From: a virus
Lineage: Duplodnaviria; Heunggongvirae; Uroviricota; Caudoviricetes
IMG/VR virus record: IMGVR_UViG_3300045988_129873
Coordinates: 1-28,944 of that record
DNA length: 28,944 bases
Direction: 5' to 3' (one strand)
The notes beneath the pieces were generated by a model that did not search any database, had not been told where the DNA came from, and saw nothing but the letters and a program-made list of their open reading frames with translations. Within the stretch, counting starts at the first letter, position 1. Each line of letters begins with the position of its first letter. The translations under genes were made by a program, and so were the position numbers. This document shows positions 2,952 through 25,345 of this stretch, one piece after another.

Positions 2952-3176
2952 ATGCATACAGTTTCTGAAAATCAGTGCGGTAAATACGCATTACTGCTGC
3001 AACAGGCCAGAACCGAAGCACAGGCCGATGCAGCGACGCGCTTTTCTTCTCATCTTGACGCCATGATTCGCCACATCACAAAGGCGGAATTATCCCGCGT
3101 GGAGATAGTCGAGCTGCTCAGTCAGGAGTCGGAAAAATTTCACAATATCGGATTGTCTCGCGGGGAGGTGCTTTGA
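2952..3176 (+). CDS. Hypothetical early protein (P2 orf80 position)
   Basis: ATG at 2952 with a GGAG SD. Small early-operon ORF. Confidence 0.55.
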
Positions 3177-3478
3177 TGTCCTGTTCTCGTTCAGTTGTAT
3201 TACTGAATAACGCCTTAAAAATCGCCGTTATGAAAAATGGCGATTTATCTCTTATTCAACTTGGTCTTGATAAAGAAAAACGCGAAATAACTGAGTCTGT
3301 TATCGCGATTTATCAGAACGAATTAAATCTCCTGTCTGATGTGGTCAATTTACTTGTTAAACGCGCTGTATTTCACAAGCAAATCTCCTCCGTGGATGAA
3401 CTGACGAAATTAACGACAGAAATTGCCAGCTATTGCGCTGATGAATTTAAAAAACTTAACGACAAAAGGAGCTGGTAA
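3176..3478 (+). CDS. Hypothetical early protein (P2 orf81 position)
   Basis: ATG at 3176 overlaps the previous stop (TGATG) and is preceded by GGAGG. Confidence 0.55.
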   Translation: MSCSRSVVLLNNALKIAVMKNGDLSLIQLGLDKEKREITESVIAIYQNELNLLSDVVNLLVKRAVFHKQISSVDELTKLTTEIASYCADEFKKLNDKRSW

Positions 3479-3702
3479 TGCCGGACAACGTAGATTTTAT
3501 TCAGGAACAACAGGCTGAATTACTGGAGCGTCAGATTAACGCGGCAAGGGTAAAACATTGCGGTGCTTCTGCGCTGATTTGCGAAGAGTGTGACGCGCCA
3601 ATACCTGCTGCCCGTCGTGCGGCTTATCCGTCAGCCACGCGTTGTGTTTCCTGCCAGTCAGTCTTTGAAGCAAAAAACAAACATTACCGGAGAACGGCAT
3701 GA
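3478..3702 (+). CDS. TraR/DksA-family C4 zinc-finger protein (P2 orf82 position)
   Basis: 74 aa with CxxC...CxxC (CEECDAPIP...CVSCQ). AAAGGA SD 7 nt upstream. Confidence 0.75.
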   Translation: MPDNVDFIQEQQAELLERQINAARVKHCGASALICEECDAPIPAARRAAYPSATRCVSCQSVFEAKNKHYRRTA

Positions 3703-3974
3703 GTATTCGTATTGAAATTGGCGAACGTTATGTCGTTACCAGTGACAGCTTTCAGTTTATTCTCCACGAGAAAAAGAGAGCGGAAAGCGGTAAAAACGCC
3801 GGTCAGGAATGGCTGGCGGTGGTTGGTTATTATCCGAAATTAAGCCAGCTCGTTTCCGGCCTGATGCATCACGATATTCTGACCGGAAGCGCAAAGTCTT
3901 TTGCTGATTTAAACGCGCAGGTTGAGCAACTCAGCAAGCGTTGTTCAGAGGCTTTTGGCTCATATGGCCGTTAA
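3699..3974 (+). CDS. Hypothetical early protein (P2 orf83 position)
   Basis: ATG at 3699 with a GGAGA SD. Overlaps the A start by 11 nt. Confidence 0.55.
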   Translation: MSIRIEIGERYVVTSDSFQFILHEKKRAESGKNAGQEWLAVVGYYPKLSQLVSGLMHHDILTGSAKSFADLNAQVEQLSKRCSEAFGSYGR

Positions 3975-6240
3975 AGCCTCCGGGCGTTTTGTCCCTCCGT
4001 CAGCATTTGCTGCAGGCACCGGTAAGGCGTTTACCGGTGCTTATGCATGGAACGCGCCACGCGAGGCTGTCGGGCGCGAAAGACCCCTTACACGTGACGA
4101 GATGCGTCAGGTGCAAGGTGTTTTATCCACGATTAACCGCCTGCCTTACTTTTTGCGCTCGCTGTTTACGTCACGCTATGACTACATCCGGCGCAATAAA
4201 AGCCCGGTGCACGGGTTTTATTTCCTCACATCCACTTTTCAGCGTCGTTTATGGCCGCGCATTGAGCGTGTGAATCAGCGCCATGAAATGAACACCGACG
4301 CGTCGATGCTGTTTCTGGCTGAGCGTGACCACTATGCGCGCCTGCCGGGAATGAATGACAAGGAGCTGAAAAAGTTTGCCGCCCGTATCTCATCGCAGCT
4401 TTTCATGATGTATGAGGAACTCAGCGATGCCTGGGTGGATGCGCATGGCGAAAAAGAATCGCTGTTTACGGATGAGGCGCAGGCTCACCTCTATGGTCAT
4501 GTTGCTGGCGCTGCACGTGCTTTCAATATTTCCCCTCTCTACTGGAAAAAATACCGTAAAGGACAGATGACCACGAGGCAGGCATATTCTGCCATTGCCC
4601 GTCTGTTTAACGATGAGTGGTGGATTAGTCAGCTTAAAGGCCAGCGTATGCGCTGGCATGAGGCGTTACTGATTGCTGTCGGGGAGGTCAATAAAGACCG
4701 TTCTCCTTATGCCAGTAAACATGCCATTCGTGATGTGCGTGCACGCCGCCAGGCAAATCTGGAATTTCTTAAATCGTGTGATCTCGAAAACAGGGAAACA
4801 GGCGAGCGCATCGACCTTATCAGTAAGGTGATGGGCAGTATTTCTAATCCTGAAATTCGCCGGATGGAACTGATGAACACCATTGCCGGTATTGAGCGTT
4901 ACGCCGCCGCAGAAGGTGATGTGGGGATGTTTATCACGCTGACCGCGCCGTCAAAGTATCACCCGACACGTCAGGTTGGAAAAGGCGAAAGTAAAACCGT
5001 CCAGCTAAATCACGGCTGGAACGATGAGGCATTTAATCCAAAGGATGCGCAGCGTTATCTCTGCCGTATCTGGAGCCTGATGCGCACGGCATTCAAGGAT
5101 AATGATTTACAGGTCTACGGTTTGCGAGTCGTCGAGCCACACCACGACGGAACGCCGCACTGGCATATGATGCTTTTTTGTAATCCACGCCAGCGTAACC
5201 AGATTATCGAAATCATGCGTCGCTACGCGCTCAAAGAGGATGGCGACGAAAGAGGAGCTGCGCGAAACCGTTTTCAGGCAAAACATCTTAATCGGGGCGG
5301 TGCTGCGGGGTATATCGCGAAATACATCTCAAAAAATATCGACGGCTATGCACTGGATGGGCAGCTCGATAACGATAGCGGCAGACCGCTGAAAGATACT
5401 GCCGCGGCTGTTACCGCATGGGCGTCAACGTGGCGCATTCCGCAATTTAAAACGGTTGGCCTGCCGACAATGGGGGCTTACCGTGAACTACGCAAATTGC
5501 CTCGCGGCGTCAGCATTGCTGATGAGTTTGACGAGCGCGTCGAGGCTGCACGCGCCGCCGCAGACAGTGGTGATTTTGCGCTGTATATCAGCGCGCAGGG
5601 TGGGGCAAATGTCCCGCGCGATTGTCAGACTGTCAGGGTCGCCCGTAGTCCGTCGGATGAAGTTAACGAGTACGAGGAAGAAGTCGAGAGAGTGGTCGGC
5701 ATTTACGCGCCGCATCTCGGCGCGCGTCATATTCATATCACCAGAACGACGGACTGGCGCATTGTTCCGAAAGTGCCGGTCGTTGAGCCTTTGACTTTAA
5801 AAAGCGGCATCGCCGCGCCTCGGAGTCCTGTCAATAACTGTGGAAAGCTCACCGGTGGTGATACTTCGTTACCGGCTCCCACACCTTCTGAGCACGCCGC
5901 AGCAGTGCTTAATCTGGTTGATGACGGTGTTATCGAATGGAATGAGCCGGAGGTCGTGAAGGCGCTCAGGGGCGCATTAAAACACGGGCTGGGAACGCCA
6001 AATCGTCAGCAAAGAAACGGAAGCCCGTTAAAACCGCATGAAATTGCACCATCGGCCAGACTGACCCGGCCGGAACGATTGCAAATCACCCGTATCCGCG
6101 TTGACCTTGCTCAGAACGGTATCAGGCCGCAGCGATGGGAGCTTGAGGCGCTGGCGCGTGGGGCAACCGTAAATTATGACGGGAAAAAATTCACGTATCC
6201 GGTTGCTGATGAGTGGCCGGGGTTCTCGTTACCCATTTGA
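3964..6240 (+). CDS. A: Replication initiation endonuclease A (rolling-circle HUH nickase, P2 gpA-like)
   Basis: Trimmed to the ATG at 3964 (MAVKASGRF...); the track start is a TTG. Contains the HUH-type motif HWHMMLF and the tyrosine-pair region YIAKYISK characteristic of rolling-circle initiators. Confidence 0.92.
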   Translation: MAVKASGRFVPPSAFAAGTGKAFTGAYAWNAPREAVGRERPLTRDEMRQVQGVLSTINRLPYFLRSLFTSRYDYIRRNKSPVHGFYFLTSTFQRRLWPRIERVNQRHEMNTDASMLFLAERDHYARLPGMNDKELKKFAARISSQLFMMYEELSDAWVDAHGEKESLFTDEAQAHLYGHVAGAARAFNISPLYWKKYRKGQMTTRQAYSAIARLFNDEWWISQLKGQRMRWHEALLIAVGEVNKDRSPYASKHAIRDVRARRQANLEFLKSCDLENRETGERIDLISKVMGSISNPEIRRMELMNTIAGIERYAAAEGDVGMFITLTAPSKYHPTRQVGKGESKTVQLNHGWNDEAFNPKDAQRYLCRIWSLMRTAFKDNDLQVYGLRVVEPHHDGTPHWHMMLFCNPRQRNQIIEIMRRYALKEDGDERGAARNRFQAKHLNRGGAAGYIAKYISKNIDGYALDGQLDNDSGRPLKDTAAAVTAWASTWRIPQFKTVGLPTMGAYRELRKLPRGVSIADEFDERVEAARAAADSGDFALYISAQGGANVPRDCQTVRVARSPSDEVNEYEEEVERVVGIYAPHLGARHIHITRTTDWRIVPKVPVVEPLTLKSGIAAPRSPVNNCGKLTGGDTSLPAPTPSEHAAAVLNLVDDGVIEWNEPEVVKALRGALKHGLGTPNRQQRNGSPLKPHEIAPSARLTRPERLQITRIRVDLAQNGIRPQRWELEALARGATVNYDGKKFTYPVADEWPGFSLPI

Positions 6241-6500
6241 GTAAAAACACAACGTGATTTGATATGGCATTGAATGGCTTATGCGGAGCAGTTATGGGGC
6301 AGCAGAAGGTCAATAGCATGCTGAATTAGAAGGCTAAATGCTATTGAGTGACTAGCATGTCGGTAAGGACGGCCGTTTGATCCGGGTCATAAAAGGCCAT
6401 CCATTTAGTCTAATAAAATCATTGCGGGTAACCTTATGTCGACGCATAATTCATCTTGAGCGAAGTCTTGTCAGTCTTTCATCGTATTGATGATGGGCGC

Positions 6501-6531
6501 AAAAAAACCACCCTGGCAGGTGGTTTTTTTG
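6501..6531. terminator. Bidirectional rho-independent terminator (A-tract, 7-bp stem aaccacc/ggtggtt, 6-nt loop, T-tract)
   Basis: aaaaaaaccaccctggcaggtggttttttt read directly. Lies immediately 3' of the minus-strand small ORF and about 260 bp 3' of gene A. Confidence 0.7.
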
Positions 6532-6542
6532 TTTGAAGCATA

Positions 6543-6656
6543 TTAAAGCATAATGCTGACATTGATATTACTGACGTTTACTGACAAACCACTCGGACTA
6601 CCGTTTGGATAGCCAAAGAGGGCCAGAACGAGCATGCAGTAATAGCATTTCTTCAT
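6543..6656 (-). CDS. Candidate small hydrophobic peptide, 37 aa (MKKCYYCMLVLALFGYPNGSPSGLSVNVSNINVSIML)
   Basis: ATG at 6656 is preceded by a perfect AGGAGG SD at 4-nt spacing. The terminator at 6501..6531 follows directly after the stop. The longer 88-aa track ORF has no SD at its upstream starts. Confidence 0.4.
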   Translation of the reverse strand: MKKCYYCMLVLALFGYPNGSPSGLSVNVSNINVSIML

Positions 6657-6801: not shown

Positions 6802-6849
6802 CACAACATATAGTATGTCGTTGTTTCTAGACATACATTCTATGTTGTG
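6802..6849. promoter_or_regulatory. Imperfect palindrome / hairpin (cacaacatatagtatgtc ... gacatacattctatgttgtg)
   Basis: 9-bp perfect outer arms plus inner 6-7 bp pairing around a 10-nt loop, upstream (minus-strand sense) of the small ORF. Confidence 0.4.
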
Positions 6850-7134
6850 TAACAAGGGCTTTGCATTAAACATGTTTGAGATTTTATTGATGTAGCTCAA
6901 AGTAAAAAACAGAGACTACGGTTGATAAGGTCTTGAAAGCAATGTAAATTTTTTAAAGTTGCCAATTGCTTAAAAATGTACAGTTGCGGTATGGCGTACT
7001 TAAAAAGCTATGCATGCAACAAGTGAATGTTTTTGCATGCGTTGGGGATGTCCGTTCAGGCTGCGTGCGGTCAGGACTGGTGCGGATCCATAGTATCTAT
7101 GCAACTGCATTAAAACCGCCCCGTGAAGCGGGCG

Positions 7135-7297: not shown

Positions 7298-8434
7298 ATG
7301 ACAAGCTATGTTACATGGGCAAATAAAGGTGGAATAGGTAAATCAACATTATCTTTCCAATTGGCGTTAAAATACGCGAGATTAAACACGAATAAAAAAG
7401 TAATCATAATAGATATGAGCCCTCAGTGTGATGTCTCTAGAATGTTATTGGGGGGAGGGCATTTTAACGGTGAGCAAAAGATCTTGGATAGAATGACCTC
7501 TAATCCAAGGTTGACAATTTACCGGTATCTTGAGGCCTGTGTTAATGATGTTCCTTCTGGGAGGGGATGGCCTGATTCATTATCATACTTAATTGAACCT
7601 AATTCTTTTCGAGACGAAAACGCAGAAAAATTGCCTGATAATATTAGTATGGTCTGTGGAGATTTCGACTTAGAGAGGGTTACTCATAGTTTAGATAATT
7701 TGCCACAACCTCAACCAAGAGGCGGGCGTGTTCCGTCGGGTGCTCATTACTCAGCATATTTATTGCCACGCACTTTTCTACGGAAAATGGTGGAGGACTT
7801 TGAGCGCGAATACAGGGATGTGACAATTTTTATTGATACAGATCCATATTATTCGGTAGTAACAACACATCTGGGGCTTCTGGCTGCAGACAGGTTGATT
7901 TCGGCATACTCTCCTTCATCTCAAGCAAGCCAGTATGCAGTATATCGTAGCTTAGAGTTTCTATACGATCCTAATTATGGACTGGTGCAAGAGGTTAATA
8001 CACAGAGAGCAATATATGGTACCCCTTGGTTTGATAGTTTAAATAATATAATTACAACACCGAATATATCTGTTGCAAATCTTTATATGGTAGTAAGTAA
8101 CATGAATACGCCTCAGGCTGGAAGAGGACAACCTCCATACAGCCAACCCCAAAAACTACATAGACAATCGCAACAAGAAGTTATATCTAGAATTAATGAC
8201 ACATTAAGTAGTTTGGGGATCGCGCATGATTATGTTCATGACTATTTATGGGATCTCAAGAGATTAGGTTTGATTTGTGATTATAATGGTTTTGATTTAG
8301 CAACAATTCAATTAGGGGAAAATTATGCGGAACCAAGTGATGATGGTAATTATTATGTAAATACTACAGGTGGAACACCGATCCAATTATCATCCTATAA
8401 TGCTAGGATCGAAACTGTTACATCAAAACTATAA
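7298..8434 (+). CDS. AT-rich cargo gene: ParA/MinD-like P-loop ATPase (deviant Walker A) with uncharacterised C-terminal half, 378 aa
   Basis: Deviant Walker A KGGIGKST at residues 10-17 (7325..7348), an IIIDMSPQ motif like ParA DxDPQ, and a Walker-B-like TIFIDTDP near residue 175. AGGAA SD 7 nt upstream. Much lower GC than the backbone. Hairpin terminator directly after the stop. No ParB or parS partner seen. Confidence 0.8.
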   Translation: MTSYVTWANKGGIGKSTLSFQLALKYARLNTNKKVIIIDMSPQCDVSRMLLGGGHFNGEQKILDRMTSNPRLTIYRYLEACVNDVPSGRGWPDSLSYLIEPNSFRDENAEKLPDNISMVCGDFDLERVTHSLDNLPQPQPRGGRVPSGAHYSAYLLPRTFLRKMVEDFEREYRDVTIFIDTDPYYSVVTTHLGLLAADRLISAYSPSSQASQYAVYRSLEFLYDPNYGLVQEVNTQRAIYGTPWFDSLNNIITTPNISVANLYMVVSNMNTPQAGRGQPPYSQPQKLHRQSQQEVISRINDTLSSLGIAHDYVHDYLWDLKRLGLICDYNGFDLATIQLGENYAEPSDDGNYYVNTTGGTPIQLSSYNARIETVTSKL

Positions 8435-8506: not shown

Positions 8507-9526
8507 CTATAGGGTGTATTGTCTGAATTTTATTACATTCTGACCGAGCCAGCCGTTTATTTCCCGAATCCTGTCCTGTAACGGGATAAGCTCATTGCGG
8601 ACAAAGACCTTTGCCACTTTCTCAATATCACCCAGCGACCCGACGTTCTCCGGCTTGCCACCCATCAACTGAAAGGGGATGCGGTGTGCGTCCAGCAGGT
8701 CAGCGGCGCTGGCTTTTTTGATATTAAAAAAATCATCCTTCGTTGCCACTTCACTGAGCGGGATAATTTTAATGCCGTCGGCTTTCCCTTGTGGGGCATA
8801 GAGGAACAGGTTTTTAAAGTTGTTGCGGCCTTTCGACTTCACCATGTTTTCGCGGAGCATTTCGATATCGTTGCGATCCTGCACGGCATCGGTGACGTAC
8901 ATGATGTATCCGGCATGTGCGCCGTTTTCGTAATACTTGCGGCGGAACAGCGTGGCCGACTCATTCAGCCAGGCAGAATTAAGGGCGCTCAGATATTCCG
9001 GCAGGCCGTACAGCTCCTGATTGATATCCGGCTCCAGCAGGTGAAACACGGAGCCGGGCGTGAAGGCTGTCGGCTCGTTGAAGGACGGCACCCACCAGTA
9101 AACATCCTCCTCCACGCCACGGCGGGTATATTTTGCCGGTGAGGTTTCCAGTCTGATGACCTTACCGGTGGTGCTGTAACGCTTTTCCAGAAACGCATTA
9201 CCGAACACCAGAAAATCCAGCACAAAGCGGCTGAAATCCTGCTGGGAAAGCCACGGATGCGGGATAAATGTCGAGGCCAGAATATTGCGTTTGACGTAAA
9301 TCGGTGAGCTGTGATGCACGGCAGCACGCAGGCTTTTTGCCAGACCGGTAAAGCTGACCGGTGGCTCATACCATCTGCCGTTACTGATGCACTCGACGTA
9401 ATCCAGAATGTCACGGCGGTCGAGTACCGGCACCGGCTCACCAAAGGTGAATGCCTCCATTTTCGGGGCGCTGGCGGTCATTTTTTTTGCCGCAGGTTGC
9501 GGTGTTTTCCCTTTTTTCTTGCTCAT
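8507..9526 (-). CDS. Q: Portal protein Q (P2 gpQ-like)
   Basis: 339 aa. Start ATG overlaps the P stop (ATGA). Order Q-P divergent from O-N-M-L as in P2. Confidence 0.92.
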   Translation of the reverse strand: MSKKKGKTPQPAAKKMTASAPKMEAFTFGEPVPVLDRRDILDYVECISNGRWYEPPVSFTGLAKSLRAAVHHSSPIYVKRNILASTFIPHPWLSQQDFSRFVLDFLVFGNAFLEKRYSTTGKVIRLETSPAKYTRRGVEEDVYWWVPSFNEPTAFTPGSVFHLLEPDINQELYGLPEYLSALNSAWLNESATLFRRKYYENGAHAGYIMYVTDAVQDRNDIEMLRENMVKSKGRNNFKNLFLYAPQGKADGIKIIPLSEVATKDDFFNIKKASAADLLDAHRIPFQLMGGKPENVGSLGDIEKVAKVFVRNELIPLQDRIREINGWLGQNVIKFRQYTL

Positions 9527-18722: not shown

Positions 18723-19631
18723 ATGCCGATTATCGACCTGAACCAGCTACCCGCACCGGATGTGGTCGAGGAGCTGGACTTTGAAACCATTCTTGCCGAA
18801 CGCAAGGCGACACTGATTTCCCTTTACCCGGAAGACCAGCAGGAGGCGGTTGCCCGTACCCTGACGCTGGAATCCGAGCCTCTCGTCAAACTGCTGGAGG
18901 AAAATGCTTATCGTGAGCTTATCTGGCGTCAGCGTGTGAATGAGGCCGCACGGGCGGTAATGCTGGCCTGTGCCGCCGGTAATGACCTTGATGTGATTGG
19001 TGCCAATTACAACACCACACGCCTGATTATCACCCCGGCAGATGATTCGACCATCCCGCCGACACCGGCAGTGATGGAATCTGACACCGATTATCGGCTG
19101 CGTATTCAGCAGGCGTTTGAAGGTTTAAGCGTCGCCGGGTCGGTGGGTGCCTATCAGTATCATGGCCGCAGTGCCGACGGGCGTGTCGCGGATATCTCTG
19201 TCACCAGTCCGTCTCCGGCCTGCGTCACTATCTCTGTGCTGTCACGTGAAAATAACGGTGTCGCATCCGAAGACCTGCTGGCGGTGGTGCGTAACGCCCT
19301 TAATGGCGAGGACGTCAGGCCGGTGGCCGACCGCGTGACCGTGCAGTCTGCCGCCATCGTTGAATACCAGATAAACGCCACGCTTTACCTTTACCCTGGT
19401 CCCGAAAGCGAACCCATACGCGCTGCCGCCGTGAAAAAACTGGAAGCGTATATCACGGCACAGCACCGGCTGGGGCGCGATATCCGACTGTCTGCCATTT
19501 ATGCCGCTTTGCATGTGGAAGGCGTGCAGCGTGTCGAACTGGCTGCACCGCTGGCCGATATCGTGCTTAACAGCACGCAGGCGTCTTTCTGTACCGAATA
19601 CAGCGTCGTGACCGGAGGCTCGGATGAGTGA
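18723..19631 (+). CDS. J: Baseplate protein J (302 aa)
   Basis: 302 aa. P2 order. Confidence 0.9.
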   Translation: MPIIDLNQLPAPDVVEELDFETILAERKATLISLYPEDQQEAVARTLTLESEPLVKLLEENAYRELIWRQRVNEAARAVMLACAAGNDLDVIGANYNTTRLIITPADDSTIPPTPAVMESDTDYRLRIQQAFEGLSVAGSVGAYQYHGRSADGRVADISVTSPSPACVTISVLSRENNGVASEDLLAVVRNALNGEDVRPVADRVTVQSAAIVEYQINATLYLYPGPESEPIRAAAVKKLEAYITAQHRLGRDIRLSAIYAALHVEGVQRVELAAPLADIVLNSTQASFCTEYSVVTGGSDE

Positions 19632-20154
19632 TTCGCGACTGCTGCCGACCGGCTCATCACCGCTTGAAGTCGCCGCCGCAAAAGCCTGTGCGGAAATTGA
19701 AAAAACGCCGGTCAGGATTCGTGAGCTGTGGAACCCGGACACCTGCCCGGCAAATTTGCTGCCGTGGCTGGCGTGGGCGTTTTCGGTCGACAGATGGGAT
19801 GAAAAGTGGCCGGAAGCGACAAAACGCGCCGTTATCCGCGATGCCTATTTCATCCACTGTCATAAAGGCACTATCGGCGCAATCCGGCGTGTGGTGGAGC
19901 CGCTCGGCTATCTCATCAACGTGACGGAGTGGTGGGAAAACAGTGACCCGCCCGGCACCTTCCGGCTCGATATTGGTGTACTGGAAAGCGGCATCACAGA
20001 GGCAATGTATCAGGAAATGGAACGGCTGATTGCTGATGCCAAACCTGCAAGTCGCCACCTTATTGGCCTGAACATTACCCGGGACATTCCCGGCTACCTG
20101 TTCGCCGGTTGTGTGGCTTACGACGGCGATGTAATTACGGTTTACCCCGGATAA
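19624..20154 (+). CDS. I: Baseplate protein I (176 aa)
   Basis: 176 aa. Overlaps the J end. Confidence 0.9.
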   Translation: MSDSRLLPTGSSPLEVAAAKACAEIEKTPVRIRELWNPDTCPANLLPWLAWAFSVDRWDEKWPEATKRAVIRDAYFIHCHKGTIGAIRRVVEPLGYLINVTEWWENSDPPGTFRLDIGVLESGITEAMYQEMERLIADAKPASRHLIGLNITRDIPGYLFAGCVAYDGDVITVYPG

Positions 20155-20164
20155 GTGAGGAATA

Positions 20165-22414
20165 ATGAGCACAAAATTCAGAACCGTTATCACCACTGCC
20201 GGTGCAGCAAAGCTGGCAGCGGCAACCGCGCCGGGAGGGCGGAAGGTCAACATTACCACGATGGCCGTCGGGGATGGCGGTGGTAAATTGCCTGTCCCGG
20301 ATGCCGGACAGACCGGGCTTATCCACGAAGTCTGGCGACATGCGCTGAACAAAATCAGCCAGGACAAACGAAACAGTAATTATATTATCGCAGAGCTGGT
20401 TATTCCGCCGGAGGTGGGCGGTTTCTGGATGCGTGAGCTTGGCCTGTACGATGATGCGGGAACGTTAATTGCCGTGGCGAACATGGCCGAAAGTTATAAG
20501 CCTGCCCTTGCCGAAGGCTCAGGGCGTTCGCAGACCTGCCGCATGGTCATCATCGTCAGCAGTGTGGCCTCAGTGGCGCTGACCATTGACACCACAACGG
20601 TGATGGCAACGCAGGATTACGTTGATGACAAAATTGCAGAGCACGAACAGTCACGACGTCACCCGGACGCCTCGCTGACCGCAAAAGGTTTTACTCAGCT
20701 AAGCAGCGCGACCAACAGCACGTCTGAAACACTGGCCGCAACGCCGAAAGCAGTAAAGACCGCCTATGACCTTGCTAACGGGAAATATACTGCGCAGGAT
20801 GCCACCACAGCGCGAAAAGGTCTTGTCCAGCTCAGTAGTGCCACCAACAGCACGTCTGAAACGCTCGCCGCAACACCAAAAGCGGTTAAGGCAGCGTATG
20901 ACCTTGCTAACGGGAAATACACTGCACAGGACGCCACCACAGCGCGAAAAGGTCTTGTCCAGCTCAGTAGCGTCACCAACAGCGATTCTGAAACGCTTGC
21001 GGCAACGCCAAAGGCGGTAAAGGCCGCGTATGACCTTGCTAACGGGAAATACACTGCACAGGATGCCACTACAGCGCGAAAAGGTCTTGTCCAGCTCAGT
21101 AGCGCCACCAACAGTGATTCTGAAACGCTGGCCGCAACATCAAAAGCGGTGAAGTCTGCCTATGACAATGCTGAAAAACGTCTTCAGAAAGATCAGAACG
21201 GTGCGGATATTCCTGATAAAGGACGCTTCCTGAGTAACATTAATGTTTACAGCAAAGGTGAAGTGGATAAGAAAAAGGGAATGCGAAAGTATTCGTTTGC
21301 AGCCCCTGCAAATGTCGTTGCCGGGAAGTGGTATCCCGTTATCTTTCGCCGTGCTGCCAGCCTTTCAGGAGAAATGGCATCCCGCGTCGTTATTTCAACT
21401 GGTTGTTATAACGGCGATTATGTAATGAATAACTGCGAGTTTAATGGCATGGTTATGCCCGGAGGCTGGACCGATCGTGGTTCATATGCGGCAGGTTATT
21501 TCTGGACGTATCAGACTAATGAGCGTTCAATCCATTCCATTGTTACAAGCCTGAAAGATGATGATGTATGTAGTGTTTTTTATGTTGAAGCCAGAGCTTT
21601 CCCAGTACAAATTCTTGCAGAGGAAGGGCTAACGGTTATTGTTCCGACAGAGGATTATGTCGTCGGTCAGACGACATATAAGTGGGGGGCAACTAATCCC
21701 GCTACAGAAAGCACGAACGTACAGGCTATTCTGGATTTTAAAAATGGACGTGGTTATTACTGTTCACATCCATTTATTTCCAGCCTTTCAGGAAATGCTG
21801 CAACAGCAACGAAGTTAGCGAACGCAAGAAATATTAATGGTGTCAGATTTGATGGCTCTGCCGATATAAATATTAATACACTGGTATCCAGAAACCGTGT
21901 TACTGCATTAGGTGGGAGCGTAAAGGGGACACCAGGTATTCAGATGTATGAGGCATACAACAATGGCTACCCAACAGCCTATGGTAATGTGCTTCATCTC
22001 ACTGGCGTAACCGCTGTAGGAGAGGGTGAGTTACTTATTGGCTGGAGTGGAACCAGCGGTGCTCATGCTCCGGCATATATTCGCTCCCGACGAGATACCA
22101 CAGATGCTAACTGGTCTGGATGGGCGCAACTATATACAACTGCTCATAAACCCTCAGCGGGAGATGTTGGTGCATACACCAAAGCTGAGTCAGATTCACG
22201 TTATGTGAGAGACATGCGGTTGGGCGGTGCATCTACATATAAACCAGCAAATAATGGTACTACATGGACGCATCAGGCTCCGTCAGGTTGCGTATATACC
22301 GGCATTATTGTTCAGGATACCGGCTCAAACTCTGCCGATAACATTGGTGGCGTATATTACAGACCGGTGCAGAAATACATTAACGGGACATGGTATAACG
22401 TGGCGCAGGTATAA
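20165..22414 (+). CDS. H: Tail fibre protein H (749 aa) with internal tandem repeats and a lower-GC C-terminal receptor-binding part
   Basis: Conserved N-terminal baseplate-attachment region. Fibre repeat motifs (SSATNSTSETLAATPKAVK). Position before tail-fibre assembly gene G. Confidence 0.9.
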   Translation: MSTKFRTVITTAGAAKLAAATAPGGRKVNITTMAVGDGGGKLPVPDAGQTGLIHEVWRHALNKISQDKRNSNYIIAELVIPPEVGGFWMRELGLYDDAGTLIAVANMAESYKPALAEGSGRSQTCRMVIIVSSVASVALTIDTTTVMATQDYVDDKIAEHEQSRRHPDASLTAKGFTQLSSATNSTSETLAATPKAVKTAYDLANGKYTAQDATTARKGLVQLSSATNSTSETLAATPKAVKAAYDLANGKYTAQDATTARKGLVQLSSVTNSDSETLAATPKAVKAAYDLANGKYTAQDATTARKGLVQLSSATNSDSETLAATSKAVKSAYDNAEKRLQKDQNGADIPDKGRFLSNINVYSKGEVDKKKGMRKYSFAAPANVVAGKWYPVIFRRAASLSGEMASRVVISTGCYNGDYVMNNCEFNGMVMPGGWTDRGSYAAGYFWTYQTNERSIHSIVTSLKDDDVCSVFYVEARAFPVQILAEEGLTVIVPTEDYVVGQTTYKWGATNPATESTNVQAILDFKNGRGYYCSHPFISSLSGNAATATKLANARNINGVRFDGSADININTLVSRNRVTALGGSVKGTPGIQMYEAYNNGYPTAYGNVLHLTGVTAVGEGELLIGWSGTSGAHAPAYIRSRRDTTDANWSGWAQLYTTAHKPSAGDVGAYTKAESDSRYVRDMRLGGASTYKPANNGTTWTHQAPSGCVYTGIIVQDTGSNSADNIGGVYYRPVQKYINGTWYNVAQV
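20684..21181 (+). repeat. Tandem 132-bp (44-aa) in-frame repeat array, about 3.75 copies, inside gene H
   Basis: aaaggtcttgtccagctcagtag recurs at 20816, 20948 and 21080 (period 132). Protein units KG[FL][TV]QLSS[AV]TNS[TD]SETLAATPKAVK[TA]AYDLANGKYTAQDATTAR. Confidence 0.9.
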
Positions 22415-22417
22415 TTT

Positions 22418-22945
22418 ATGCAGCATTTAAAAAATATTACGGCGGGTAATCCAAAAACGGTTGAACAATATCAATTGACAAAGGACTTTGATGTTGTCTG
22501 GTTTTTTTCAGAAGATGGTAAGAACTGGTACGAAGAACAAAAGTATTTTGCTGATGACACGATAAAAATAGCGTACGACAAAGATAATATCATCCACTAT
22601 GTGGAAAAGGATGTGACAGCTATCAGACCGGATGGATTAAGTGTTGTTGAAGTGGCGGATATTACTGCTAACCGACGGGCGGACATTTCAGGGAACTGGA
22701 TGTTTAAGGACGGCAAAGTGATTAAACGCATTTATACGGCAGAGGAATTACAGCAGCAGGCAGAAATTCGGAAAGCCAGACTTCTTGCAGATGCTGAATC
22801 CGTGATTTTGCCGCTGGAGCGCGCGGTCAGACTGAACATGGCAACAGATGAGGAGCGCAGCCGACTGGAAGCATGGGAACGCTACAGCGTTCTGGTCAGT
22901 CGTGTGGATCCTGCAAATCCTGAATGGCCGGAAATGCCGCAATAA
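22418..22945 (+). CDS. G: Tail fibre assembly chaperone G (175 aa)
   Basis: 175 aa. Directly downstream of H. Confidence 0.88.
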
Positions 22946-23107
22946 GTTGTATGAGCTCTGGTGTGAGCTTACATATTTATGGCACAGAGTAAAGCCTAAT
23001 CTGACAGTCCGCTCTGTGCCACGAGCGGAAGCTGTCAAGATCATGCTAGATAGCGGGAGGGGCAAGCAATAGCAGATATGCGAACATGGTGATATATAAG
23101 ATAAATA

Positions 23108-23182: not shown

Positions 23183-25345
23183 TTAGTTCTTTATTTTTGC
23201 CATTTTTTTATAATGTGCAGAATAACCTGTGTGCTCAAACACTAATCTAAGCCCCTCTTTGAAATCATTATAGTTAAATTCCTTGAAGTCAAAAATGTTC
23301 TGTCCTAATGAGTGTGACTCTCTGTTTATGTAACGAATAAAGGATTGAAATCGTGGTTTTTTTAACTCTGGTTTTTGAGTGACATTGCTTAAATCTGCTT
23401 TTTGTACAAAATTGAAAAAGTATTCAATTATATTTCTCATGCAGTTAGCAATTAAGGCAGGAGGCTGTTTGTCATCATTGATTACTGACCAATAAGACTG
23501 GTAGTCATTTTGTATTTCATCGTATTTCATTAAGATAATTGAACTGCCGTTGGAGTTTTTAGAAAGCCTAAATAAATTTTGATTTTCTTTTCTTCTTTCA
23601 TGGTTTGCATCAGCGAGTTCATAGAAAAAATATAAGCTGTGAGATAAAACAAATATCTGCTCTATTTCATTAGAGTTAAAGAAATCATTTTTTATTAGTT
23701 GGCCTATATTGTAGACAAAAATATGTGATAAGCTTGATACAGGATCATCGATTATAGCTATTTTTTTGGTTTTACCCTCGGTGGCGACTCTTTTACCTCT
23801 GAATAGTTCTCTAAAATACAAAAGGCTGATAATCATTTTTTCGCCTTCACTTAATGATGAGAATACTTTAGAATTAGAGTCATTACGTACTATGCGATAA
23901 AGAGTATCCTCATATTTTGCGATGTGAAAATCTGTGATTCCGATGTCATTTAAACCTTGGTTTATGTTGAATACGGCATCATCTATATTTACTGTTGATT
24001 TCTGATATTCAATCCGTTCTGCATCTTTAGTCTTTATTTTTGCTTCTTTTTCATCTTTGGCGGTGTTTTTTCTGATTATTATAATGTTTGCACTTTCTTT
24101 TATTTCGTTGAAATTTAAAATTGTTTGATCATACTCATACCTTAAGAACTGCCAGAAAGAAATTTTTATTTTTTCTAGCTCGTGTTTTGCATTGTCTATT
24201 TTTGAGTTATGTGTGGTTATTTCATTGTTCACTAATTTCACTAATGAATTGAAGTTATCAACAGAGTTGGATATATCATTCAGCGTTACTGGGGTACTGG
24301 GGTTTGTTACCTTCTGCTTTATTAGTTCCAAGTTGCTCTCTGTATCTTTTCTTAACAGGGCGTAACAGTCGCTTAATTGAACTATATAATTTGAAGATAG
24401 TTTGCATTCTTTATAAGTATCCAGTGAAGGAATACTGTCAATCAATGAGTTATATTTGGTCTGAATGGATTTTATTTTTTTTACACTATCTTGATACGTT
24501 TCATCGAAATAGTTGCGAATATGCTGAACCAAGTTTTCAGTTATAATTTGAGATTGACAAAATGGACACTGAGAATCTCCTGTTTGTTCTAAGTATTTTA
24601 GTCCTTCATTTACCCAATCAGAGTTCTGAAGCTTACTTATAAGATATGAAACGGGACTATCTGTACTTCCCACAATTATATTCTGAAGTAATTCCACTTC
24701 ATCGAGTGATAATACGATGGTGTGAATCTCCTCTAGCATGCTGTATTTTATTGCTGTTTCGCCATCAATCGCACTTGCTTCTTCTTTTAAGTCAGAGATG
24801 TTTTTTGATGGCTTAGAATTAGGTAAAGGAATGGAGCAAAGATGGTTGAATAATGATTCTTTACTTCCCATTTTTCCTAATAAACAAAATTCAAGGACCC
24901 TGTCACCACCTGAATAGTTGGTTTTTATTTCCCATGTTTTATTTTGAGCTTTGTTTTTTGCATCAGAAACAGAGGTGTTTTGTGCTGTTATTTCTTTTTC
25001 AATTTCACGTTTTTCATCAGATAGTTTTATTATTTCTAATGTGAGGCTCTCAACCTTTTCTTTTGCTTCTTTATTTTCCTTGGACAAGCTAAATATTCCA
25101 TTTAAAGAATCCTTTGCATAAAAGTTATCCTGAATGAATTTCTGATTGTAGACAAGGATTTCATCATACTCACCTGAGTGGGAACAATTCTCATATTTTT
25201 TATTATCTATGTCATAGAAATAATTGGAGAAGGTGCTTTTACCTGTTCCATTTAAACCATAAATAATATTTACTTTTTTATCAGTATTTAACTCTGATTT
25301 TGACTTATAACTTGCAACTTTATTTAGAACTATATTGTTTATCAT
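23183..25345 (-). CDS. AT-rich cargo gene at the Z/fun position: ABC/SMC-type ATPase with coiled-coil, CxxC hook-like motif and C-terminal HEPN-like R-x6-H; candidate RloC/PrrC-like defence nuclease, 720 aa
   Basis: Walker A GLNGTGKST at residues 30-38 (25232..25258). Charged coiled-coil stretches around residues 85-135 and 370-450. SQCPFCQ at residues 257-263 (about 24557..24577). ABC-signature-like SLSEGEK at 497-503. Walker B KKIAIIDDP at 527-535 (23741..23767). H-loop-like VLSHS at about 566-570. RYINRESH at 671-678 (23312..23335). About 25-30% GC in sampled stretches. Confidence 0.8.
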   Translation of the reverse strand: MINNIVLNKVASYKSKSELNTDKKVNIIYGLNGTGKSTFSNYFYDIDNKKYENCSHSGEYDEILVYNQKFIQDNFYAKDSLNGIFSLSKENKEAKEKVESLTLEIIKLSDEKREIEKEITAQNTSVSDAKNKAQNKTWEIKTNYSGGDRVLEFCLLGKMGSKESLFNHLCSIPLPNSKPSKNISDLKEEASAIDGETAIKYSMLEEIHTIVLSLDEVELLQNIIVGSTDSPVSYLISKLQNSDWVNEGLKYLEQTGDSQCPFCQSQIITENLVQHIRNYFDETYQDSVKKIKSIQTKYNSLIDSIPSLDTYKECKLSSNYIVQLSDCYALLRKDTESNLELIKQKVTNPSTPVTLNDISNSVDNFNSLVKLVNNEITTHNSKIDNAKHELEKIKISFWQFLRYEYDQTILNFNEIKESANIIIIRKNTAKDEKEAKIKTKDAERIEYQKSTVNIDDAVFNINQGLNDIGITDFHIAKYEDTLYRIVRNDSNSKVFSSLSEGEKMIISLLYFRELFRGKRVATEGKTKKIAIIDDPVSSLSHIFVYNIGQLIKNDFFNSNEIEQIFVLSHSLYFFYELADANHERRKENQNLFRLSKNSNGSSIILMKYDEIQNDYQSYWSVINDDKQPPALIANCMRNIIEYFFNFVQKADLSNVTQKPELKKPRFQSFIRYINRESHSLGQNIFDFKEFNYNDFKEGLRLVFEHTGYSAHYKKMAKIKN

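Follow-up and report, generated by a model that had tools for sequence, protein, structure and literature searches.

Module structure of a P2-type prophage tail fibre gene and its assembly chaperone

The tail fibre genes of phage P2 are reportedly mosaics exchanged among unrelated phages, as the 1992 paper of Haggård-Ljungquist, Halling and Calendar on H and G, cited in PMC13100340, is said to describe. P2 (Peduoviridae) H has 669 amino acids and two units of the PF03406 'phage tail fibre repeat' family, the first starting at residue 174. P2 G has 175 amino acids. In phage Mu, the fibre protein S has one PF03406 unit, a DNAxxRLxKDxNGADIP linker and a C-terminal tip. The Tfa proteins U and U', which accompany S and S', belong to the Caudo_TAP chaperone family. 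In both Mu and P1 the variable part of the fibre lies on an invertible segment with an invertase. Lambdoid fibres, such as lambda Stf and the collagen-like fibres of EHEC prophages, also contain PF03406 repeats. Here, the units come after a PF08400 N-terminal domain, sometimes with collagen-like stretches between them; a 2012 paper describes the PF03406 domain as poorly known (PMC3368898). The hypervariable distal regions of fibres determine host range in P2-like coliphages (PMC5285337). The published model for Mu Tfa assigns fibre binding to a variable N-terminal domain and trimerisation to a conserved C-terminal one (PMC9608196).

We analysed a stretch of 28,944 nucleotides, hereafter the window, that corresponds to IMG/VR record IMGVR_UViG_3300045988_129873. 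It carries a P2-like prophage with an integrase gene at 386-1414 and the gpA replication gene at 3922-6240. Protein I, H and G were identified using Pfam and comparison with the P2 annotation; the other gene assignments derive solely from the layout of open reading frames (ORFs). H, encoding the tail fibre protein, spans 20165-22414 (749 aa; coordinates include the stop codon) on the plus strand, as do all features described below unless stated. PF12571 matches residues 1-151 (196.8 bits; cut-off 23) and PF03406 matches four tandem stretches (261 bits; cut-off 22). The ORF upstream of H encodes a Tail_P2_I protein, and H sits in a V-W-J-I-H-G late operon with the gene order of the P2 annotation. 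Domain content and operon position indicate that this is a P2-type H. The start of G is 4 nt past the H stop codon. This gene (22418-22945, 175 aa), directly 3' of the fibre gene, encodes a putative tail fibre assembly chaperone (PF02413 Caudo_TAP, 118.1 bits against a cut-off of 22.1; phrog_136). Pfam and the P2 order thus bear out the earlier note, which had read the locus as a P2-type H fibre gene followed by the chaperone gene G. The J-I DNA is 96-97% identical to P2-like contigs. Around 62 complete E. coli genomes contain the H-G stretch at 80% or more of the query length. Among the matches listed, which cover 40 of these genomes, it is 97-99% identical and annotated 'tail fiber protein'. 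Hence, the H-G stretch is an ordinary mosaic P2-type tail fibre gene of an already known type. Its discovery value is small, since dozens of annotated E. coli genomes already contain it. We conclude that this P2-like (Peduoviridae) prophage very probably has a trimeric tail fibre of modular design, encoded by H, with parts of differing evolutionary age.

The first 173 residues of H are 97% identical to P2 H. As in P2, the genes run J-I-H-G, the PF03406 units begin at residue 174, G has 175 residues and the H protein ends in the same C-terminal tail, QKYINGTWYNVAQV. However, overall identity between the two H proteins is 53% and the distal 400 aa are largely unrelated. For the distal modules M1 and M2, defined below, global alignment with P2 H gives about 5% identity. 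The N-terminal halves of the two G proteins are about 68% identical. H of the window is the longer protein, as had been claimed. It has four PF03406 units rather than two, which adds 88 aa; the C-terminal modules differ by -8 aa, and the net difference is +80 aa.

The N-terminal domain (aa 1-173; 20165-20683) has a backbone-like composition, with a GC content of 0.568 and a third-position GC content (GC3) of 0.624. By its family assignment to PF12571 (Phage_tail_fib), this domain would dock the fibre on the baseplate. Relatives of the locus were gathered using the N-terminal domain. This gave around 103 homologous loci, from 80 IMG/VR contigs, 23 GTDB species genomes and 3 annotated records. 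The mean pairwise divergence of the domain was 1.9% among 44 distinct relatives. The N-terminal domain evolves slowly.

An array of four PF03406 units follows (aa 174-337; 20684-21175), as identified by Tandem Repeats Finder (TRF), a custom HMM and Pfam. Units 1, 2 and 3 lie at 20684-20815 (aa 174-217), 20816-20947 (aa 218-261) and 20948-21079 (aa 262-305), respectively. Unit 4 (21080-21175; aa 306-337) is shortened and keeps about 32 of the 44 residues. TRF reported a period of 132 bp at 20696-21166, with 3.6 copies, 88% matches, no indels and a score of 704. In a second repeat search the copies were spaced 132 nt apart, starting from 20683. The array therefore comprises three full units and one truncated unit of 132 bp, or 44 aa, all in frame. 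Position, unit size and the count of nearly four in-frame copies agree with the earlier description. A minus-strand ORF within the array (20764-21111; 115 aa) was rejected as a by-product of the repeats, its own translation being repetitive.

Tandem repeats are generally prone to assembly errors, and the array might be an assembly or sequencing artefact. The probability of this is close to nil. Most of the ~62 complete E. coli genomes, as well as 10 IMG/VR contigs, align to the 2781-bp H-G stretch without a gap, and the units have diverged enough to be assembled unambiguously. Exact runs common to adjacent units reach at most 38 nt. Such runs are too short to confuse assemblers.

Between units 1, 2 and 3, 13-22 of the 132 nucleotides differ in pairwise comparison (10-17%), mostly at third codon positions. 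Only 2-5 codons have non-synonymous differences. Nei-Gojobori estimates between units gave dS values of 0.36-0.88 and dN/dS ratios of 0.06-0.28. Hence, the description of the copies as having few substitutions holds for the protein and fails for the DNA. Purifying selection has preserved the protein sequence of the array, and synonymous sites have drifted. Each unit was also compared with the units of 56 other four-unit alleles. In every case, the best match was the unit at the same position, with identities of 0.93-0.955 compared to 0.74-0.89 for units at other positions. Between orthologous alleles the array has diverged by 6.2% on average, roughly three times the 1.9% of the adjoining N-terminal domain.

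These data bear on the explanation proposed in the earlier note. This held that the array expanded recently in the prophage of the window and that the whole distal 400 aa plus G form a single host-range cassette. Some observations point that way: the units are nearly identical as protein, H exceeds P2 H by 80 aa, GC content drops right after the array and, at one related locus (L013), units 3 and 4 are 99% identical. We nevertheless consider the proposal very improbable. Units that differ at 10-17% of bases, with dS as high as 0.36-0.88, are not expected of a recent expansion, and the four-unit arrangement is common to 56 other alleles, position by position. The high dS between units and the unit-by-position orthology show that the four-unit array is old and inherited, predating the divergence of these prophages.

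The number of units is not fixed, as comparison across related prophages revealed. Among homologues with a complete H ORF, seven had one unit, 16 had two, 10 had three, 55 had four and 13 had five. The IMG/VR relatives were the best 80 of 424 matches, so these frequencies carry a sampling bias and are not population estimates. The C-terminal module of the window is itself found behind arrays of different length. With two units it occurs in 661-aa proteins (P0002-P0015) from several E. coli assemblies. These are draft assemblies, in which repeat collapse is possible for some records, yet unlikely for these because the units share at most 38 identical bases. The three-unit version (705 aa) is encoded by the complete genome of strain PapRG-06-3. 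Four units are found in most of the ~62 complete genomes, with the listed 40 nearly all gap-free and of equal length. The five-unit version (793 aa) is that of L013, in which the near identity of units 3 and 4 points to a genuinely fresh duplication.

An identical run of 38 nt suffices for occasional homologous exchange. Unequal exchange between units would add or remove whole 44-aa units in frame, and so would yield the two-, three-, four- and five-unit versions seen with the distal module of the window. Each unit would be a fixed axial increment of the trimeric fibre shaft, and exchange would alter fibre length by 44 aa at a time. It is conceivable, though doubtful, that unit number is a selected 'length dial', which fits the reach of the fibre to the depth of O-antigen or capsule, and that the array is also a DNA-level adaptor (~85% identity with fibre genes of lambdoid prophages in the same cell) that channels the exchange of distal modules between phage families. 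The series of alleles with two to five units on one tip offers a clean test of how shaft length relates to adsorption.

Composition changes along H. In the late genes of the prophage backbone, GC content is 0.567 ± 0.022 (500-nt windows), with a minimum of 0.506. Directly after the array, GC content drops from about 0.57 to 0.42-0.48 and remains low across G. Every 500-nt window in 21224-22945, which covers distal H and G, has a GC content of 0.416-0.484. The array has a GC content of 0.526 and a GC3 of 0.489 (measured over 20684-21223). GC3 declines stepwise: 0.62 in the N-terminal domain, 0.49 in the array and 0.35-0.44 in distal H. The maximum-likelihood change point for GC3 is codon 316 (nt 21113), within the last unit (log-likelihood ratio 16.0, compared to a maximum of 6.9 in 500 permutations). 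Within G, the N-terminal half (22418-22702) has a GC content of 0.393 and a GC3 of 0.40. The corresponding values for the C-terminal half are 0.521 and 0.50. The composition of H and G is therefore not uniform, and distal H and G are indeed richer in AT than the N-terminal part of H. However, AT-richness is not a mark of this allele. Each of the 17 E. coli-type H length classes examined showed the drop, P2 among them, so that in E. coli it characterises the whole family.

Low distal GC content could instead arise from local functional constraints, that is, amino acid content, codon choice or expression tuning, rather than from foreign origin. That every E. coli P2-like allele shows the drop, irrespective of its distal module, fits such constraints. 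We think this explanation unlikely on three grounds. Third codon positions, where the influence of amino acids is least, show the strongest drop (0.62 to 0.35-0.44). Phages of unrelated families carry close relatives of the modules. Finally, distal GC3 reaches 0.68 in P2-like H of other genera, so low GC content is not intrinsic to the fold. We thus favour horizontal exchange of the receptor-binding distal part. This part of the earlier proposal is upheld by modules that have relatives in other phages and that occur in shifting combinations.

A conserved linker (...DNAEKRLQKDQNGADIPDKGRFLSNI; 21176-21241) separates the array from the distal region and contains the first recombination breakpoint. 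Here, the homology of many alleles ends at 21223 or 21241. The same linker is found after a single repeat unit in Mu S (5yvq, 8ju3) and in another E. coli fibre, P0099. The distal region was divided into three modules. M1 (aa 354-548; 21224-21808) is AT-rich, with a GC content of 0.446 and a GC3 of 0.374, and is probably a beta-rich shaft or knob domain. M2 (aa 549-676; 21809-22192; GC 0.474, GC3 0.352) starts inside a GNAATATKL motif (aa 543-551). M3, the distal tip (aa 677-749; 22193-22411), starts at a DSRYV motif and ends in RPVQKYINGTWYNVAQV. In alignments to related loci, high-scoring segment pairs (HSPs) end recurrently at five places. The first, 21223/21241, is just 3' of the array and linker. 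The second, 21807, is inside the GNAATATKL motif. Next is 22115/22193, of which 22193 coincides with the DSRYV motif, and then 22355, at the onset of the conserved RPVQKYINGTWYNVAQV tail. The last, 23020-23040, is 75-95 nt beyond G.

At least nine distal architectures occur on the four-unit array, in H proteins of 642, 657, 696, 736, 740, 748, 749, 764 and 772 aa. M1 of the window is common, at 96-98% nucleotide identity, only to the 740-, 748-, 749-, 705- and 793-aa alleles and to phages P22H4 and 9W. In the 740- and 748-aa alleles, it is paired with a different M2. Conversely, M3 and G of the window occur with other M1 and M2 modules in the 621-, 709-, 736-, 748- and 772-aa alleles. Since M1, M2 and M3 plus G occur in differing combinations, the AT-rich part is not one cassette. 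The 740-, 748-, 772-, 736-, 709- and 621-aa alleles, in which these parts are recombined, thus also weigh against a single exchange of the whole distal region with G. On this evidence, the AT-rich part consists of at least three independently assorting modules. The resulting map of H and G, with precise breakpoints and the linkage of tip and G, could be of use in designing chimeric P2-type fibres.

Each module has relatives in other phages. For M1, protein relatives occur in siphophage JenK1 (57%) and in a lambdoid side tail fibre (53%), and at 31-42% identity in fibres of T5-like, rV5-like and Aeromonas T4-like phages. M2 is 72-78% identical to segments of P1 S (77.5%), SSU5 (75%) and jumbo phage Goslar (72%). 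It is also 87% identical to a segment of P0099, which consists of one PF03406 unit, the linker, an M1-like part, this M2 and then a collar-domain tip. The last unit and linker match Mu S and S/S' (PDB 5YVQ, 8JU3), the C-terminal end of M2 matches Mu S/S' 385-421, and M3 matches both the C-terminus of Mu S (5yvq 433-503) and residues 480-552 of the phiTE short tail fibre. In the phiTE structure 9CUY, residues 3-92 are modelled, so the tip is outside the model (PMC11972413). A PDB sequence search with M1 alone returned nothing at E <= 1, and a search with M2 alone returned the Mu S/S' segment as its sole match. Hence, the homology check suggested for the distal part gave relatives in Mu S, P1 S, lambdoid side tail fibres and T5-like and T4-like fibres, and in the PDB none for M1. 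An AlphaFold2 monomer model of aa 339-749, built from a 29-sequence alignment, had a mean pLDDT of 47.9 and a pTM of 0.37. Fold matches of models with so little confidence mean nothing, and the model was rejected. P2 and Mu suggest, by analogy, that the fibre probably recognises an LPS core structure.

The linkage of tip and chaperone was assessed by correlating module identities with those of G. M3 identity correlated with that of the N-terminal half of G (r = 0.89) and with that of the C-terminal half (r = 0.76). M1 and M2 identities did not correlate with G (r ~0.27). The N-terminal half of G is 95-100% identical whenever M3 identity is at least 93%; otherwise it is 68-72% identical. The C-terminal half is 81-89% identical even with non-matching tips. 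G thus has a variable N-terminal and a conserved C-terminal domain. Together, these identities indicate that joint inheritance with G is confined to the last 73 aa of H, and that within the chaperone it is the fibre-binding N-terminal half that goes with M3. Linkage of M3 to this half, with conservation of the other, agrees with the published Mu Tfa model. The idea that tip and chaperone move as one cassette of about 400 aa is therefore sound for these 73 residues (r = 0.89) and not for M1 and M2, which assort separately.

The locus resembles that of Mu in its linker, its homologous C-terminal tip and the family of its chaperone, and that of P1 in M2. It differs from both in its N-terminal attachment domain and in having no invertible segment with an invertase. 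A search for a segment like Mu G or P1 C gave only two inverted pairs (20-23 nt, 78-80% complementary), which are at chance level. No Gin/Cin-type invertase was found at the neighbouring genes, which are I upstream and a gene for a PDC-S06 AAA_13 protein downstream. The modules of the window are drawn from a pool common to the fibres of Mu, P1, lambdoid, T5-like and other enterobacterial phages, and short conserved motifs are the sites at which they recombine. Matches to the repeat DNA occur in 2728 of 5426 complete E. coli genomes, in up to 14 places per genome. The repeat DNA is about 85% identical to lambdoid fibre genes of E. coli, annotated 'prophage tail fiber N-terminal domain'. Repeats in other prophage fibre genes of the host may thus supply homology for distal swaps that change host range. 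More generally, the conserved array, linker and short motifs could act as homology patches for such module exchange. The suggested role of the repeats as a recombination adaptor is based on the positions of breakpoints and on shared DNA.

To the right, the H-G block extends beyond G (22946-23040), and the homology of relatives ends at 23020-23040, as judged from HSP ends. A cargo hotspot starts past this edge, and GC content is around 0.31 at the PDC-S06 AAA_13 gene, the next after G. In P2, the slot downstream of G is occupied by fun(Z), a different cargo gene. A downstream promoter scan found no excess over shuffled sequence. A weak terminator-like hairpin is present at 22952-22971, 3' of G.

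The tail fibre gene H carries an array of four 132-bp (44-aa) PF03406 units. We compared orthologous arrays (20684-21223) among 56 four-unit alleles. These differ by 6.2% on average and by 12.6% at most. For the adjacent N-terminal domain (20165-20683), the same comparison gave 1.9%. Hence, the array is three times more diverged than the sequence that it adjoins. Divergence between paralogous units is also uneven; the 5' 78 nt differ by 19% compared with 7.5% for the 3' 54 nt. Together, these patterns hint at partial gene conversion, or exchange with other fibre genes. Separately, a 115-aa antisense ORF (20764-21111, - strand) lies entirely inside the array. Its own translation is repetitive. 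Hence, this ORF most likely exists only because of the repeats and is probably not a gene.

Signs of rearrangement near H and the chaperone gene G were seen in relatives. Protein P0001 (E. coli, 621 aa) is a fusion whose first ~163 aa correspond to baseplate protein V. Fused directly to these are the end of one H repeat unit, then the final unit, and then the exact distal module of the window, meaning the AT-rich part of H downstream of the array. The likely origin of P0001 is a defective prophage in which a deletion took out W, J and I together with the start of H. The related locus L003 (E. coli AHB5, NZ_OZ546922.1) has the same H-G allele as the window. At this locus, ~1 kb downstream of G, lies a truncated pseudogene (6816-6998) for a second tail fibre assembly protein. 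It looks like a remnant from a previous exchange of the tip or the chaperone. At a further locus, L011 (IMGVR_UViG_2551306525_000002, 3088-6643), the alignment is split and covers window positions 19304-19776 twice. The pattern suggests that ~470 nt have been duplicated in the J/I part of that contig.

In the window, a 720-aa AAA_13 (PF13166) ATPase (23183-25345, - strand) is encoded in the slot that separates G from the tail sheath gene. The GC content of this gene is only 31%. Over nearly its full length, the protein matches PDC-S06, a candidate defence family in PADLOC (842 bits); it also matches phrog_2801. In P2, by contrast, the slot is occupied by fun(Z). L003 instead has a RES-family NAD+ phosphorylase and a hypothetical gene here; in the related locus L002 the cargo is a different hypothetical gene.

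A 378-aa ParA/MinD-like ATPase (AAA_31, CbiA; 7298-8434, + strand) is encoded between the gpA replication gene and the next large ORF on the - strand (8507-9526). In P2, the tin/old accessory genes lie at roughly this position. The ATPase may be further accessory or defence cargo.
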